Assembly: GCA_051439505.1 (NCBI GenBank) | Contig: JBFRWI010000144.1 | Location: 1 to 60,544 of the forward strand | From: Hormoscilla sp. | GTDB taxonomy: Bacteria > Cyanobacteriota > Cyanobacteriia > Cyanobacteriales > Desertifilaceae | Direction: 5' to 3' | Length of the DNA stretch: 60,544 nt | Shown here: one piece after another, positions 6,001 through 12,000 of the stretch | Position numbering within the stretch: the stretch's first letter is position 1 | Layout of the letters: each line of letters starts with the position of its first letter | Program-made: the position numbers

Positions 6001-9000
6001 CAAGTCAATAGCCCTGGAGACCATGATGGGCGATCGCCCGGTGCGGGTCGGCGGCATAAGCAAGGGTTCGGGGATGATCCACCCCAATATGGCCACCATG
6101 CTAGCCTTCGTTACCTGCGACGCTGCCGTATCTCCCCCCCTCTGGCAAGAAATGCTCCATCGGGCAGCCGATCGCAGCTTTAATCAAATTACCGTAGATG
6201 GGGATACTAGCACCAATGACACCCTGATCGCCCTGACCAACGGTCAATCCCGGACCAGTGCCATCACCAAAATGGGTCCAGAGGCAGAAAAACTCGAAGG
6301 GATGTTAACAGCAGTCTGTCAGCATTTAGCAAAGGCGATCGCCCGGGACGGGGAAGGTGCCACCTGCTTAGTAGAAGTGCGAGTTTCCGGTGCCGATAAT
6401 GAAGCAGCGGCCCGTCAAGTGGCCAAGACCATCGTCGGTTCATCCTTAGTCAAATCAGCCATCTTCGGGCGCGACCCCAACTGGGGGCGAATAGCTGCCG
6501 CCGCTGGACGCGCGGGAGTGCAATTCGATCCCGAAAATCTCCGCATTCAACTGGGGGATTTCTTGCTGATGGAAAATGGTCAACCCCTGGCGTTCGATCG
6601 GGCAGCAGCGAGTGAATATATCAAGAAAGCAGCAGCAGGGGCTTACTTAAAAGCAGATACAGTATTAATCTCCGTGAGTATCGGCAATGGTGCCGGGACA
6701 GGGATTGCCTGGGGCTGCGATCTGAGTTACGATTACGTGAAGATTAACGCCGAGTACACCACTTAAGCAATTCAAAATTCCAAATTCAAAATGCCAAAGG
6801 GGCGTTGCACATTATGCTTCGCCCCTGGGTGCATACCATATGCACCCGGAACATCCGGAATATTCCCCCGGGCCGAAGTTAATCCAAATCCAATACTTCT
6901 CAGTTAAGGATATAGGTTGTCATTGCGAGGGGGGGGGACGTAGCGATTATTTATGCGAAATTGAGTTAACCCCCCCGAAGCAATCCCCGCCCTATATGGG
7001 ATGAAGAGCACTGCGGCGTTGTCGGTGAGATTGCTAGCCCTCCTGCGTCGGGCCGCTGCGCTTTTACGAAGTGCGCGACGCAGGAGCGCTACGGGGGTCT
7101 GATCGCGGTGATCCCGGAAGATGTCGGTTTGGCCCCCCCTCGCAATGACAGGTTATTAACCGAGAAGTATTGGGAGTTAATCAGTCTGGTATTGTTGTCA
7201 CTAAGCTGTCGAGCATTTAAATTGCATAGGCCGAAACTCTGAACCCTTGTTATTATTGGCTTTCCCAATTTGGAATTTGGAATTTGGAATTTGGAATTTT
7301 GAATTGTTAACCTCACCCAAATTAACAATTAGCCATCAACAATTAACCATTAACTATAAGCAATGATAATTTCCACAGTTCCCAACTGACCGTCAATGCG
7401 CAGACGCTGACCATCTTGCAACTTTTGGGTAGCATCATGCACGTCCATAACTGCGGGAATGCCATATTCTCGGGCGACGATCGCGCCATGGGACAAGCGC
7501 CCACCCACTTCCGCAACCAAACCCCCCGCACGGGCCAAAAGGGGCGACCAACCAGCATCAGTATAAGGTACAACTAAAATATGATTGCGATTAATATCTG
7601 GCATCTCTTGCCAACTGCGGATGATTTTCACCTCACCCTCTACCAGTCCGGGACTAGCACCAATACCTCGCAACTGTTGACTAGCAGTTGGGCGGTTCCA
7701 GCTTAAATTAAGGATAGCTGCTGGGGGGGCATTGCCGTAAACTACATAGGGTACAGCAGTCAGCTTCTTATCCTGTTGCCATTGACTTCTTCTGGTCCCA
7801 ATCAACTGCGGTAATTGCTCACTCAACTCACCCTTGTCCGTACCAGCAATCAAACTGCGGATTTCCTCAAACTGGAGGAAAAAGATATCTCCAGACTCCT
7901 GCAATATACCCGATCGCAGCCAGACTTGCTCCAAAGCCACAAAACTCCAGCGCAGTTCGGCTAGCAATTGATTATAAACCTCCGTTACTCTACCTTTAAG
8001 ATTAAGGCGGGCCTGGACCACCTGAGCTTTCAAACCTTGAGCTTGACCGGACTCTATAGGTGCCATGAAAATAGTACCTATCTGCTGCACGAACAGTTGG
8101 CGAACGGGTTTGGGGTCTTCCTGCCATCTGGGAGTAGCAATATCAGTTGCTGCTTCGCTGAGATAACCGTAGCGACTGAGAAATTGCTGAAATTGCTCTA
8201 ACACCGTTTGACCGTCTGGGATCTCAGAAAGGTTGCCAAAGATAGTTTCCGGCGTCAAAGTCTCCAACTCCGGTAGCAGATGACGGGCCGCGATCGCAAT
8301 TTCATGGAGCGATCGGGCAGCAGCCACTTCTGGCATCAGACTATAATCTAGATTGGCATCTGCCACCTTCAGCAGAGCTTGCCTGAGAGCGAAACTTAAA
8401 GGAGCGAGAATGCTATAGTAAGTGGCCCGTTTCAGCGCTAAGAGAATGCCATCTATCCGTGCCAGCAGTTCTTCTGGGTCACTGAGAGATTCTAGGCTAG
8501 TTTCCTGTAACTTCTCTATTGTCGGGGCAAACTCCTGAGAGTAATCCCGTTCAAAGTCCTGTTCTAAATTCCATTCCCGCCTCAGCAGGCGAAGCAACCC
8601 TGGCAATTGTCCGATCGTAGACATCAGGGGGGGTTTGCTAAACTTAGCCCCGCGAGTCAGAAATTCCAGACTCTCTGGGGGCAAACCCATGCGCAGAAAT
8701 ATTTCCCCCAGCAAGGAAGCATTGAAGTAAGCGCGGGAATATTGCAGAGTCGCCGTTTCTTCAAAGTCCAAAACAGCAGCAGCTTTACCCAAGACGATCG
8801 TAAAAATTTCTCCCCAGACGCCGCAAGTTAAAGGACGATTAATCGACCAAGTCAGGGGTCGAATGGATCCGGGGATCACTTCCGCAGCAATCTTGCGGGT
8901 CCAGATCGGCACCATGGTACTAATGGGACGAGATTGCAACACCCATAGCTGCTGGCCATCATAACTCCATTCAATATCCTGGGGAATCCCGTGATATTTA

Positions 9001-12000
9001 TTTTCCAACTGACGCGCCAATACCGCCACATCATGAATCAAACTTGATGGCACATCTCCATCAGTTTCCTCTACCTGGGTTGTTTCCCCATCCAACACCA
9101 CAACTCGATATTGTTCTGGCGTCTCCTGTCCGGACACTACCCTAGTGGCGTCTCCTGGTAAAGCTTCAATCACCACCTCATCCCCATGTCGCTTCACCGG
9201 ATCCCGACTAAATGCCACCCCTGAAAACACCCCCCCCACTTGGGTTTGAATCAGTACGGCCATGGATGCTTCTGGCAAATTGCGACTGCGACGATACTCT
9301 ACCGCCGCCGGGCGATCGTATGAATTCAAGCAGCGGACGATCGCCTGCTGCAATTCCCGATTGCTAGTAATATTTAAGAAGCTGGCATACTGACCCGCCG
9401 CCGTGGCCTGCTGTGAATCTTCCCCCACAGCAGTCGATCGCACCACCAGGGGATTTTCTGGGGAAGGTTGCAGAAACTCAATTAGCCCTTCGGGATCGTC
9501 ACCGGGTAGCAGCACCCATCCCCCAGGTACAGCATAGCCCCAGCGCTTCAGTAAAGATAAAGTTGCGGCTTTTTCACCCACAACCCTGGCATCCAGTCGA
9601 TCGGACAAGGAAACTGCCGCCCGATCGCCTCTAAAAAAACGAAACATAGTTCTAGTTTCCCCCTGTTTTTGTGGCACTGGCAAGTCCAAGTCATCGGCAA
9701 TTTGTTGGTAGATCCAGGCTAACAGCAAACTCAGGGCGATCGCTGCCACGCCGACTACCTTTTGTTGCGGGCGCAGCAATATGGTAATCACGGGAAACAG
9801 CACCAATACCACCAAGCGTCCCAGCCTCCGTTCCCGGACAATTGTAAAGCCGATCGTTCCGATCAGAAACACCAAACCTGCTACCTCCGGGTCGTGGGCG
9901 ATCGCCCCCCAGACCACATTAGTAGTGCCAGCACCTTTAGCCATCCCATAGCGGCCCACAACCAGGGCCATCAGGGCCAGCAACTCCCAAGCTGCGGCAT
10001 CAGGAAAGAAGAAACGGGCCAGTAGGACAGCGAAAATCCCTTTAGCCGCCTCAGATAGGACCGCCAGAATGCCTGCGAAGCTGCCGCCGTGGTAAAAAGC
10101 CGCCGAAACCGATACATTACCAGTACCCAGTTGTTTCAGGCTGCGTCCCTTCAGGGCCAATATAATCCAGTCAATTAGAGGTAGCCCTCCCAACAAAGGA
10201 CAGATTGTCAATATGACCAGAGCGCCCCAAACTTGCATTGATATCATGGATCGAAGTTAACTTAATTTCCTCGACTCGCGGAGCTAAAGCTTCCCAGTCC
10301 CGGGTACCATCACCGGTCTGTGTTTTCTCGGGACACAGCAGCTTTAGCCATTCGGCACCGTCCTCAAACTTTATAATTCTATTTTATTTTGACCGTTTGT
10401 TTGACCGAGCCTGCTCTCTCTAGGGCCAAAAAAAAGCACTCCCTTTTCAGAGAGTGCTTTTGAGTTGGACGTTACATTAACTTCTGCATGAATGCAACGC
10501 CTCTAGGGGGGTGAAAACTTTAACCATTGATAGCGGGAGCGGTCAAAGCAACGGGAGCCGCTTCACCGGAGGCTAAATCTAAGGGGAAGTTATGAGCATT
10601 ACGCTCGTGCATTACTTCCATACCCAGGTTAGCACGGTTCAGCACATCTGCCCAAGTACCGATCACGCGACCTTGAGAGTCAATGATGGACTGGTTGAAG
10701 TTGAAACCGTTCAGGTTGAAAGCCATCGTGCTCACGCCCAGGGCGGTGAACCAGATGCCGATCACCGGCCATGCACCCAAGAAGAAGTGCAAGGAACGGC
10801 TGTTGTTGAATGAAGCATATTGGAAGATCAAACGACCGAAGTAGCCATGAGCTGCCACGATGTTGTAGGTTTCTTCTTCTTGACCGAACTTGTAACCGTA
10901 GTTTTGTGATTCTACTTCGGTTGTTTCACGCACCAAGGAAGAAGTTACCAGAGAACCATGCATCGCGCAGAACAGGGAACCACCGAAGACACCTGCAACA
11001 CCCAACATATGGAAGGGGTGCATGAGGATGTTGTGCTCAGCTTGGAACACCAACATGAAGTTGAATGTACCAGAGATCCCCAAGGGCATACCATCAGAGA
11101 AGGAACCTTGCCCGATCGGGTATATCAGGAAAACTGCTGTTGCGGCGCTTACTGGTGCGCTATATGCAACACAGATCCAAGGACGCATACCCAAGCGGTA
11201 GCTCAACTCCCACTGACGACCCATGTAGCAGCAAATGCCAATGAAGAAGTGGAAGATGATCAGTTGGTAAGGACCACCGTTGTACAGCCACTCATCCAAA
11301 GAAGCAGCTTCCCAAATGGGGTAGAAGTGAAGACCGATCGCATTTGAGCTAGGAACAACCGCACCAGAGATGATGTTGTTACCGTACAGCAGAGAACCGG
11401 CGACGGGTTCCCGGATACCATCAATGTCCACAGGAGGAGCAGCGATGAAAGCGATGATGTAGCAGGTGGTTGCGGTCAGCAGGGTTGGGATCATCAGAAC
11501 ACCAAACCAGCCCACATACAGGCGGTTATCGGTGCTGGTCACCCAGTCGCAGAACCGTTCCCAAACGTTAGCGTTTTCACGCTGTTGTAAGGTCGTAGTC
11601 ATGTTAAGTATGATTGCTATTTATTTTTCGAGGTACGTCGGTAGGTTGTTTCCCCCACCTGAATACAGCATAGCTAACAATGTTTAGTTTTGTAAACCCC
11701 TGTTAAGTTTTTTGTACTTATACCTCATATAAGCAGAGCTTATGAGAACGGATCGGCCTCACCACCAGTACCCAAGCCAACAGCAAAAATGTTAAAAATT
11801 GTAACTTACAGCCCCTTCTATACTCTGGTGCCGACCTATGAATGCTTTAACCGGTGTGCCTACTGCAATTTTAGAACCGATCCTGGCCAAAGTCCTTGGA
11901 TGACACCGGCGGATGCTAAAGCGCAACTCCAGCATTTTCAGGGACAGGCGATCGAGATTTTGGTCCTCAGCGGTGAGGTACATCCGGCTAGTAGGCGCAG

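Follow-up and report, generated by a model that had tools for sequence, protein, structure and literature searches.

Co-occurrence of a fused PlsY-like/Rph-type dikinase gene with a His-tailed ferrochelatase paralog and a small hydrolase in Cyanobacteriia

The window analysed is the whole 60,544-nucleotide stretch of contig JBFRWI010000144.1 of the cyanobacterium Hormoscilla sp. (assembly GCA_051439505.1). It contains a gene in which a PlsY-like membrane domain is joined, in one open frame, to a dikinase of the rifampin phosphotransferase (Rph) type; its domains and diagnostic residues are reported in Table 1, together with two genes, encoded elsewhere, that accompany it in cyanobacterial genomes. 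An ATG three codons upstream, at position 10247, would extend the 962-aa product to 965 aa. Pfam assigns aa 12-176 to G3P_acyltransf (HMM 1-156 of 164, E 3.3e-16, 60 bits vs a cut-off of 24), two stretches to PPDK_N (the best at 261-385) and aa 883-953 to PEP-utilizers, in agreement with the fusion and the domain positions described by the genome-wide survey's note. The AlphaFold2 model of the fused protein has a pLDDT of 90. An assembly or gene-calling artefact is ruled out, because hundreds of full-length homologues exist. Contigs from three RNA libraries overlap parts of the gene; they possibly derive from the DNA of relatives, and are thus not taken as evidence of expression. A terminator scan of the interval between psbA and the fusion found none. 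Separate canonical PlsY (contig C225) and PlsX (contig C29) genes are present in the genome, as the same note had reported.

Table 1. Features of the fused gene and of its co-occurrence partners (positions in the window, unless another contig or locus is named).
Feature	Position	Strand	Remarks
Whole fused gene, 962 aa	7350..10238	minus	single open frame; 61-92% identical to full-length homologues
PlsY-fold membrane domain, aa 1-186	9681..10238	minus	N41, S45, G102-x-G104, K66 kept; Pfam, structure, alignment
R96, occupying the PlsY H92 position in the acyl-phosphate site	9951..9953	minus	invariant, 54/54 cyanobacterial representatives
D182-D183 acidic pair, directly after the lost HxxN G3P motif	9690..9695	minus	236/245 cyanobacterial copies
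ATP-grasp domain, aa about 216-444	8907..9593	minus	K223, R267, S286, E423 = RPH K22, R117, T136, E297
Rph-type acceptor-binding domain, aa about 445-850	7689..8906	minus	subfamily motifs WTRxIxxExxPGxIxPLxWSxN, YxxxYFN, GYLSExxTD
K748-G749, at the RPH R666-E667 position	7992..7997	minus	K 52/54, G 49/54; a cyanobacterial change in the second phosphotransfer site
Swivelling phospho-histidine domain, aa 851-962	7353..7688	minus	H917 (codon 7488-7490) = RPH H825
His-tailed, CAB-less ferrochelatase paralog (second ferrochelatase)	own genome C219; L207:7447-8619		co-occurrence partner
180-aa Ser-type alpha/beta hydrolase, Pfam-less	L207:4174-4716		co-occurrence partner

The model of the N-terminal domain matches PlsY (5xj5) with a Z score of 17.9 (rmsd 3.6, 185 aligned residues), the next entry reaching only 7.8. 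In the alignment, PlsY R45, H92, K104, H177 and N180 correspond to Y49, R96, A103, Y177 and I180 of the fusion; since S35 is also replaced, by T39, the clamp that holds the phosphate of glycerol-3-phosphate (G3P) in PlsY (S35, R45, K104, N180) is absent. In PlsY, R45, K104, H177 and N180 bind G3P and are essential, H177 contacting the 2-OH and being indispensable; the residual activities are 1.1% for R45A, 0.03% for H177Y, 3.3% for N180D and 7.4% for K104A (PMC5700162, Table 2). The motifs TNxxR, GGK[GS] and HxxNI occur in none of the 245 cyanobacterial fusion copies, all of which lack the equivalents of the four residues. Acyl transfer to G3P, as proposed in the survey's note, is unlikely for this reason. 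The K-G that the note regarded as retained is present in a helix, as DxxKG (K66-G67), but the functional lysine of GGKG (K104) is an alanine. Within the acyl-phosphate site (PlsY N37, T41, H92, G103/G105), N41, S45, G102 and G104 are kept, and H92 is replaced by R96. The membrane domain is not a mere anchor, a role that the note had left open, because R96, N107, E63, K66, H50 and D182-D183 are invariant polar residues in it. As judged from the alignment, the G3P site is gone, the acyl-phosphate site is retained at the level of its backbone, and a different conserved pocket remains.

The best PDB sequence match of the fusion is the Listeria rifampin phosphotransferase (E 5e-50), and a Foldseek comparison of the AlphaFold2 model with the same enzyme, RPH-Lm, gives an E of 2e-30. 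The residues of the ATP site and the catalytic histidine (K223, R267, S286, E423, H917) are present in 52 to 54 of the 54 cyanobacterial representatives, and the predicted Rph-type dikinase is complete, with the ATP-grasp and swivelling-histidine residues intact and the acceptor domain conserved. The fusion scores 229.9 bits with the rifampin phosphotransferase profile NF041857 (cut-off 999), and 215.5 and 206.2 bits with the PigC/RedH ligase profiles (cut-offs 1300 and 1350, respectively). Among non-cyanobacterial dikinases, in a set that is not dereplicated, the equivalent of RPH R666 is an arginine in 161 of 173 rows, and that of E667 a glutamate in 152 of 173. Assignment to PEP synthase/PPDK was rejected: the histidine domain is C-terminal, not central, and no PEP-utilizers_C match, which would mark a C-terminal pyruvate-binding barrel, is found in the fusion. 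The true PEP synthases of the genome lie on contig C226.

The survey's note had also called the fusion common among cyanobacteria, and it was detected in 103 of the other 135 Cyanobacteriia genomes; the remaining 32, re-searched with the central domain, gave no match. It is single-copy and broadly inherited, with a housekeeping-like spread and a fixed PlsY-like partner. Its cyanobacterial gene neighbourhood shows no conservation outside Nostocales; an SGNH hydrolase is a neighbour in 53 of 131 loci, and a cupin in 47 of 131. Outside cyanobacteria, a PlsY-like partner is fused to the dikinase or lies nearby in 36 of the 40 loci with good flanks. The view that the two parts form a functional unit is supported, since fused or adjacent pairs occur in several phyla and both active sites decay together.

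Two genes, not linked to the fusion by position in cyanobacteria, follow its presence closely. The 135 genomes were divided into 97 with an intact-looking fusion (mostly judged by sequence identity and an uninterrupted frame, and not residue by residue), 6 with a decayed one (a class formally scored after the first ferrochelatase result) and 32 without it; related genomes are not independent in these counts. The His-tailed ferrochelatase paralog is present in 96 of the 97 (one copy being frameshifted), in 1 of the 6, where only a divergent type at 51% identity is found, and in 0 of the 32. The corresponding figures for the 180-aa hydrolase are 95, 0 and 0. One genome with an intact fusion (G277) has neither gene, and another (G187) lacks the hydrolase. 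In one set of 80 genomes, concordance with the fusion is 78 for the paralog and 78 for the hydrolase, compared to 66 for the SGNH hydrolase, 57 for cofG, 57 for OCP and 47 for the cupin, used as controls; the SGNH hydrolase and the cupin do not track the fusion well. The switch between presence and absence recurs within five families (f3, f6, f7, f9 and f25), genomes of 4.5-6.9 Mb included. The co-occurrence of the three genes is a new observation; literature searches, mainly of openly available papers, brought up none about the fusion or its pairing with a ferrochelatase. That the genes are kept or lost together points to an undescribed pathway; it can also mirror a shared regulon or lifestyle, and the SGNH control by itself already attains a concordance of 66 in 80.

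The paralog scores 81 bits, below the hemH cut-off of 124.6, and its nearest structures are coproporphyrin ferrochelatases. It keeps the chelatase histidine and glutamate (HGCP, ENHETLLD), the catalytic pair of type II chelatases, where they are numbered H183/E264; the counterparts of HGCP and HETLLD in the Bacillus/Listeria enzymes are AHSLP and HLEVLYD, and both paralog motifs are invariant in 26 of 26 sequences. Fold and residues suggest a tetrapyrrole activity. The paralog would lie outside the standard coproporphyrin heme route, because no ChdC/HemQ was found in a search of this genome (93% complete). Co-folding of fusion aa 440-960 with the paralog gave 0.49 vs 0.00 for the best control, with a contact agreement between runs of at least 85% and a partner pLDDT of at least 79; this is weak support, as 116 of 157 solved pairs and 2 of 215 mismatched ones attain the mark, but only 18 of the 157 solved pairs, and both mismatches, do so at values up to 0.60. 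In Nostoc PCC 7120 a ferrochelatase, which we take to be alr4616, is up-regulated. The increase is 8.6-fold, together with OCP and HLIPs, according to the available text of PMC7699953; orthology to the paralog is not implied, and the observation does not count as support for the module.

In 17 of 74 non-cyanobacterial loci the dikinase has a ferrochelatase-like neighbour, often one that abuts it; the other 57, many on short contigs, have none. These neighbours fall into three subtypes, one of which shares 47-51% identity with the cyanobacterial paralog. The flanking genes are spread across the dikinase tree, built by FastTree with a single long-branch outgroup, which cannot tell whether the cyanobacterial and the other copies form one clade. 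PucC, SOUL, TspO, photolyase and heliorhodopsin turn up at single loci, and exporters are frequent neighbours. No hydrolase homologue was found in these loci at E<=1, and the ESM Atlas returned only unnamed cyanobacterial clusters for this protein.

In the reading tentatively preferred, a tetrapyrrole (a porphyrin or a chlorophyll-derived chlorin) is the substrate of a module of three enzymes, in which the fusion would be the one that is bound to the membrane and consumes ATP; roughly two thirds of the confidence in it goes to activation and transfer, and one third to plain phosphorylation of the tetrapyrrole. ATP would be converted to AMP and Pi, leaving phospho-His917; in the central domain the substrate, most likely through a propionate carboxylate, would take up the phosphate, giving an acyl-phosphate; and the PlsY-like domain would move the acyl group to an acceptor other than G3P, presumably an amine or alcohol because acidic residues replace the phosphate clamp. 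Metal insertion would fall to the paralog, and the removal of an ester (methyl or phytyl), before or after, to the hydrolase. The likely purpose would be to quench, tag or export phototoxic tetrapyrroles. The pathway probably modifies porphyrin/chlorophyll-type pigments rather than supplying lipids with fatty acids. Of the "activate and transfer" scheme put forward in the survey's note, the logic stays plausible, with the dikinase residues intact, while G3P as acceptor does not. In the available text of PMC4844700, PMC12167813 and PMC13534948, the targets of Rph-type enzymes are hydroxyls, phenols or an aldehyde rather than carboxylates. Lipid genes at some non-cyanobacterial loci and the lack of a hydrolase homologue there also speak against a tetrapyrrole module, as does the loss, in cyanobacterial copies, of the E667 equivalent, which RPH needs for the second transfer.

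It is rather unlikely that a hydrophobic acid of another kind (fatty, isoprenoid or aromatic) is activated and transferred to a non-G3P acceptor, such as an amine, to give a minor lipid, the paralog and the hydrolase then sharing a stress regulon with it or serving side steps. Of the two halves of PlsY, that for acyl-phosphate is the better preserved (N37, T41/S, G103, G105), type-2 partners having H92 in 36 of 36 cases and Asp/Glu for N180 in 35 of 36, and an FtsX/MacB permease lies beside the dikinase in 21 of the 74 loci. Lipid-related neighbours (CDP-alcohol transferase, phosphatidylserine decarboxylase, DedA, DegV, UbiA) are, however, mostly single cases, and the three abutting ferrochelatase-like subtypes and the profile of the paralog would be left unexplained. 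A membrane kinase that phosphorylates the hydroxyl or phenol of a hydrophobic molecule (lipid alcohol, quinol, polyprenol) to give the final product, with the PlsY-like domain only binding or presenting this molecule, is improbable. Its chemistry would match that of RPH and HpeHI/CreHI/PpsAB (available text of PMC4844700 and PMC12167813), and monoacylglycerol sits in the acyl site of PlsY crystals (PMC5700162); but the phosphate-hole glycines and H92 persist in the stand-alone partners, which would fit the binding of an already phosphorylated species, the ferrochelatase link is not accounted for, and replacement of DgkA is rejected, this gene being present in 80 of 80 genomes of the first co-occurrence set regardless of the fusion.

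The PlsX- and ACP-independent conversion of fatty acids to acyl-phosphate and lysophosphatidic acid, proposed in the survey's note, is very improbable: the PlsY fold with its Pfam score, the kept N37 equivalent and a DegV gene beside one non-cyanobacterial locus (L142) fit it, but the G3P residues are missing in cyanobacteria and HxxNI is found in 0 of 51 PlsY-like partners. Fatty-acid entry is disfavoured also because no FakB/DegV (PF02645) was found in this genome (93% complete) and the fusion has no Fak domain, because cyanobacteria possess the Aas route (available text of PMC10114076), and because the tightest genomic partners are not lipid-synthesis genes. Detoxification of rifamycins or other foreign molecules by an Rph-like kinase anchored in the membrane, which RPH-Lm as closest solved structure and the neighbouring exporters might suggest, is hardly credible given the low NF041857 score, the replaced R666-E667 and a single-copy, housekeeping-like spread with a fixed PlsY-like partner.

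The tetrapyrrole module can be extended, as a doubtful proposal, to an undescribed conjugation pathway in most of the larger cyanobacteria and in many bacteria and archaea of sediments, in which the hydrolase would free a carboxyl, the orphan chelatase would metalate the ring, the dikinase would make a propionate acyl-phosphate, and the repurposed PlsY fold would attach the tetrapyrrole to an amine or alcohol of the membrane so that it can be quenched, stored or exported. Such a pathway would be a candidate for the way in which cyanobacteria break down chlorophyll or porphyrins. About three quarters of the sampled Cyanobacteriia hold the fused gene, which annotations wrongly call glycerol-3-phosphate acyltransferase or pyruvate,water dikinase, and the His-tailed ferrochelatase was called unstudied by a 2021 survey; with the Pfam-less hydrolase, three orphan genes gain a common testable pathway and compound class. 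A tetrapyrrole substrate would bear on the disposal of phototoxic porphyrins and chlorophyll breakdown products in cyanobacteria, and would mean new chemistry for PlsY-fold proteins and Rph-type dikinases alike. The carotenoid acyltransferase CruD is PlsY-like; to our knowledge, no PlsY-fold enzyme with a tetrapyrrole donor was known before, and the fusion would be the first, as well as the first dikinase making an acyl-phosphate.

Among known systems, RPH-Lm (PDB 5FBS/5HV1; NF041857) shares with the fusion the order of ATP-grasp, acceptor and C-terminal swivelling-histidine domains, and the equivalents of K22, R117, T136, E297 and H825. It differs by a structural identity of only 21%, the lack of an N-terminal PlsY-fold domain, the acceptor-pocket motifs, the cyanobacterial K-G at R666-E667 and the family score. 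PlsY (PDB 5XJ5; PF02660) has the same fold, GxGN, DxxKG and phosphate-hole glycines as the membrane domain, whereas in the fusion the G3P clamp and H177 are lost, H92 is an arginine, an acidic pair is added and a dikinase is fused or adjacent. HpeHI/CreHI/PpsAB are likewise Rph-type small-molecule dikinases outside central metabolism, but, as far as the available text of PMC12167813 describes them, they are two soluble components with phenolic substrates and no membrane partner. The paralog fits the His-rich, CAB-less subset of cyanobacterial ferrochelatases termed "not previously identified or studied" in the available part of PMC8529089, and the poly-His "ferrochelatase-like protein" noted in that of PMC2853384. 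The prodiginine ligases PigC/RedH/HapC, three-domain dikinases that phosphorylate a pyrrole-containing substrate before condensation (available text of PMC13534948), resemble the proposed activity; unlike the fusion, they activate an aldehyde, carry out the condensation inside the central domain and have no PlsY-like domain.

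That a PlsY-like membrane domain and an Rph-type dikinase form one chain had been proposed in the genome-wide survey's note, and is confirmed by the open frame, the Pfam domains and structure matches. Among solved structures, the closest by sequence is the Listeria rifampin phosphotransferase RPH-Lm (E 5e-50), which is also matched, at E 2e-30, by an AlphaFold2 model of the fusion built on a 64-row alignment (pLDDT 90). The N-domain, modelled alone, was compared with PlsY (5xj5), giving Z 17.9 and rmsd 3.6 over 185 aligned positions, the runner-up entry reaching Z 7.8. Canonical copies of PlsX and PlsY are found elsewhere in the genome, as the survey had stated, and true PEP synthases are present apart from the fusion. 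The closest named relatives are Hormoscilla records (91% identity); database names of family members are glycerol-3-phosphate acyltransferase or pyruvate,water dikinase.

Location of the fused gene, its domains, its partner genes and other features observed
Feature	Location	Strand	Description
Fusion gene	7350-10238	minus	single open frame, 962 aa
G3P_acyltransf domain	aa 12-176 of fusion		Pfam
PPDK_N domain	aa 261-385 of fusion		Pfam
PEP-utilizers domain	aa 883-953 of fusion		Pfam
Ferrochelatase paralog	L207:7447-8619 (own genome, G000, contig C219)		His-rich tail, no CAB domain, catalytic His and Glu kept
Hydrolase	L207:4174-4716	minus	180 aa, alpha/beta-hydrolase-like, no Pfam family above cut-off
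psbA	window 10520-11602	minus	directly upstream of fusion, same strand
Nested inverted repeats	window 6768-7306		intergenic argJ-fusion; arms of 31 nt, made up of a 7-mer tandem repeat and 94% complementary, enclosing two pairs of 18-nt arms
NACHT protein	window 1698-4040	minus	single chain: NACHT NTPase, membrane segments, TPR, C-terminal ClpS domain
Gene trio	window 14326-18324		overlapping genes: winged-helix protein, STAND-like ATPase, DUF1802 + Mrr-like nuclease (weak matches)
Methyltransferase fusion	window 260-1447	minus	one chain with a pentapeptide-repeat region and a SAM methyltransferase domain
PTS fusion	C101:505-3147 (G000)		880 aa, EIIA-HPr-EI type, in a cyanobacterium
Dead-looking fusion	L033:6553-9255		full length
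Second copy in G247	L039:7329-9104		591 aa; PlsY-like, ATP-grasp and His domains kept, entire central acceptor domain missing
SDR-dikinase	L142:1496-4756		N-terminal short-chain dehydrogenase (SDR) replaces PlsY-like part on same dikinase
Divergent ferrochelatase paralogs	L235:6271-7383, L236:6462-7514		~50% identity, HGGP, no His tail

Around the fusion, a T-tailed hairpin is seen by eye near 10430-10465, in the psbA-fusion gap, and was not reported by the terminator scan; psbA lies near the fusion also in loci L039 and L128. The intergenic repeat has matches in many contigs from other runs, and for that reason looks like a mobile repeat element. The gene trio resembles a defence cassette in its domain matches, and the PTS fusion is one that we take to be DhaM-like.

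Rph-type enzymes move the beta-phosphate of ATP to the swivel His, which hands it on to an acceptor bound in the central domain. Residues K223, R267, S286, E423 and H917 of the fusion correspond to K22, R117, T136, E297 and H825, the reference RPH residues in PMC4844700, and are present in 52-54 of 54 representatives. Subfamily motifs of the acceptor domain (E453, N506, D699, W705, R763) are common to cyanobacterial and other copies. The R666-E667 pair of RPH is required for the second transfer; at its place, R is found in 161/173 and E in 152/173 non-cyanobacterial rows (not dereplicated), K in 52/54 and G in 49/54 cyanobacterial representatives. E453, which occupies the position of RPH Q337, could stand in for E667. 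The Rph and PigC family models give scores far under their cut-offs. The enzyme is a variant of the Rph-type dikinases, outside PlsY, Rph and PigC proper.

Residues of the N-domain were mapped by alignment on Aquifex PlsY, as described in PMC5700162. S35 (as T39), N37 (as N41), T41 (as S45), the DxxKG lysine, G103 and G105 are retained. R45 (Y49), K104 (A103), H177 (Y177) and N180 (I180) are lost, so that acyl transfer to glycerol-3-phosphate (G3P), as the survey had it, is not borne out; changes of PlsY at these positions leave 0.03-7% activity (PMC5700162). H92 is replaced by Arg (R96) in 54/54 cyanobacterial representatives. The TNxxR, GGK[GS] and HxxNI motifs are absent from all 245 cyanobacterial copies, 236 of which carry a DD pair immediately past the lost HxxN. 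Non-cyanobacterial PlsY-like partners are of two main types, with HxxNI in 0/51; in the larger type, H92, G103 and G105 are found in 36/36 and an Asp/Glu at the N180 place in 35/36. By these motif counts, together with the two types of partners, the G3P site is gone and the acyl-phosphate side appears the better kept one, an acid sitting where PlsY binds phosphate. The survey's caveat, a mere membrane anchor, is contradicted by the 90-100% conservation of H50, E63, K66, R96, T106, N107, W110, D182 and D183.

The fusion is present in 103 of 135 other Cyanobacteriia genomes. A central-domain search at E 1e-4 gave no match in the 32 negative ones, and from the phylum's non-photosynthetic classes came distant Rph-type matches only (best E 1.5e-34). 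By an N-domain HMM search, the same fusion was found also outside cyanobacteria; a search from one such copy, with a cluster look-up, yielded fused copies named Thermotogota, Dehalococcoidales and Lokiarchaeota. Many unfused 780-aa dikinases came from those searches, one named Methanomassiliicoccales. From a metagenome scan, the best 74 of at least 636 relatives, a non-random sample, were taken as loci; pairing was counted in the 40 with at least 1 kb on either side, 34 short-flanked loci being excluded. A PlsY-like domain accompanies the dikinase in 36 of these 40 (4 fused, 27 within 200 bp, 5 within about 2 kb), and 4 have no such partner. Since they are fused or close in 36/40, the two parts are a functional unit.

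In some copies decay has hit both active sites together, on at least three branches of the tree, with a Spearman coefficient of 0.59 over 65 rows (16 N-domain vs 27 dikinase positions) that partly reflects general divergence. The L033 fusion, P0180 and P0187, all full-length, look catalytically dead (H917 changed to Q, K223 changed, PlsY motifs gone); such fusions stay open frames in 3/3 genomes of genus g26, where they may have a non-enzymatic role. The SDR arrangement of L142 recurs in P0340, and L201 carries the SDR as a gene of its own upstream of the dikinase.

Cyanobacterial copies of the ferrochelatase paralog share 72-87% identity, and the cysteines of FNFC and HGCP are conserved in them. 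The His-tailed, CAB-less cyanobacterial subset is described as not studied before in PMC8529089, and is mentioned in PMC2853384. The paralog was matched in 97 of the 103 fusion-positive and in 0 of the 32 fusion-negative genomes. The misses are G077, G117, G157, G175 and G251, all with a decayed fusion, and G277, a true exception confirmed by family search, whose fusion is intact. Decay was scored residue by residue in G077, G157, G251 and G127, after the paralog search result, and called in G117 and G175 from 31% identity and a genus common with G157. Among the 97 'intact' genomes, most were so classed by identity and open frame. G127, with a decayed fusion, has only a divergent paralog type (51%), and in G091 the paralog is frameshifted. 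This divergent type, also seen in G135, G243 and G261, is an additional copy in four genomes other than G127.

The hydrolase has a G-F-S-A-G nucleophile elbow, conserved Asp/His and many conserved His residues. It is often just upstream of ilvB, and lies divergently upstream of the paralog in 10/31 loci (some duplicates). It is present in 95/97 intact-fusion, 0/6 decayed and 0/32 fusion-negative genomes. In one 80-genome set, concordance with an intact fusion was 78 for both paralog and hydrolase, against 66 for an SGNH neighbour, 57 each for cofG and OCP and 47 for cupin, a thin background of four controls in related, non-independent genomes. The presence/absence switch recurs inside families f3, f6, f7, f9 and f25, and also in genomes as large as 6.9 Mb that retain cofG and OCP.

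Outside cyanobacteria, ORFs within 4.5 kb were surveyed in one representative per cluster, among the same best 74 of at least 636 relatives. Ferrochelatase-like genes adjoin the dikinase in 17 of these 74, often a few bases apart; they fall into three subtypes scattered over the tree (L163 and L164 being near-identical), one of them 47-51% identical to the own-genome paralog. FtsX/MacB permeases are near the dikinase in 21; PucC, SOUL, TspO, photolyase and URO-D-family genes are single cases, and heliorhodopsin occurs in three loci. Lipid genes are also among the neighbours: CDP-alcohol transferase, PS decarboxylase, DegV, UbiA and, in three loci, DedA. Co-folding of fusion aa 440-960 with the paralog gave 0.49, vs 0.00 for the best control (runs 0.11, 0.50, 0.49; contact agreement at least 85%, partner pLDDT at least 79). 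The mark is reached by 116/157 solved and 2/215 mismatched pairs, 18 solved and both mismatched ones lying at 0.60 or less, and the models weakly support physical pairing of the acceptor/His part with the paralog.

The fusion co-occurs with a chelatase and a hydrolase, its halves are coupled, its ATP and His sites are intact and its G3P site is lost. The acceptor in the central domain would be a tetrapyrrole, in the simplest case one of its propionates; the resulting acyl-phosphate would move into the PlsY-like site, from which an amine or alcohol would receive the acyl group. Metalation of the ring would fall to the chelatase and the unmasking of a carboxyl to the hydrolase, and the product would be quenched, stored or exported. 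A tetrapyrrole substrate, in any form, comes close to an even chance; the full activate-and-transfer version with it is rather unlikely. Acyl transfer from a non-tetrapyrrole substrate, to be weighed with the better kept acyl-phosphate side and with the ferrochelatase counts, is unlikely. A plain lipid or phenol kinase is quite improbable. The survey's PlsX- and ACP-independent route from fatty acid through acyl-phosphate to G3P retains the PlsY fold, lacks the G3P site and is very improbable. Drug inactivation, towards which the RPH-Lm match points and from which the low Rph score leads away, is scarcely credible.

A literature search, its coverage leaving out most subscription papers, found no paper on the fusion or its pairing; the new, testable part is the module of fusion, paralog and hydrolase. 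A parallel is offered by PigC/HapC where, according to PMC13534948, the same phosphotransfer step activates a pyrrole substrate for condensation.
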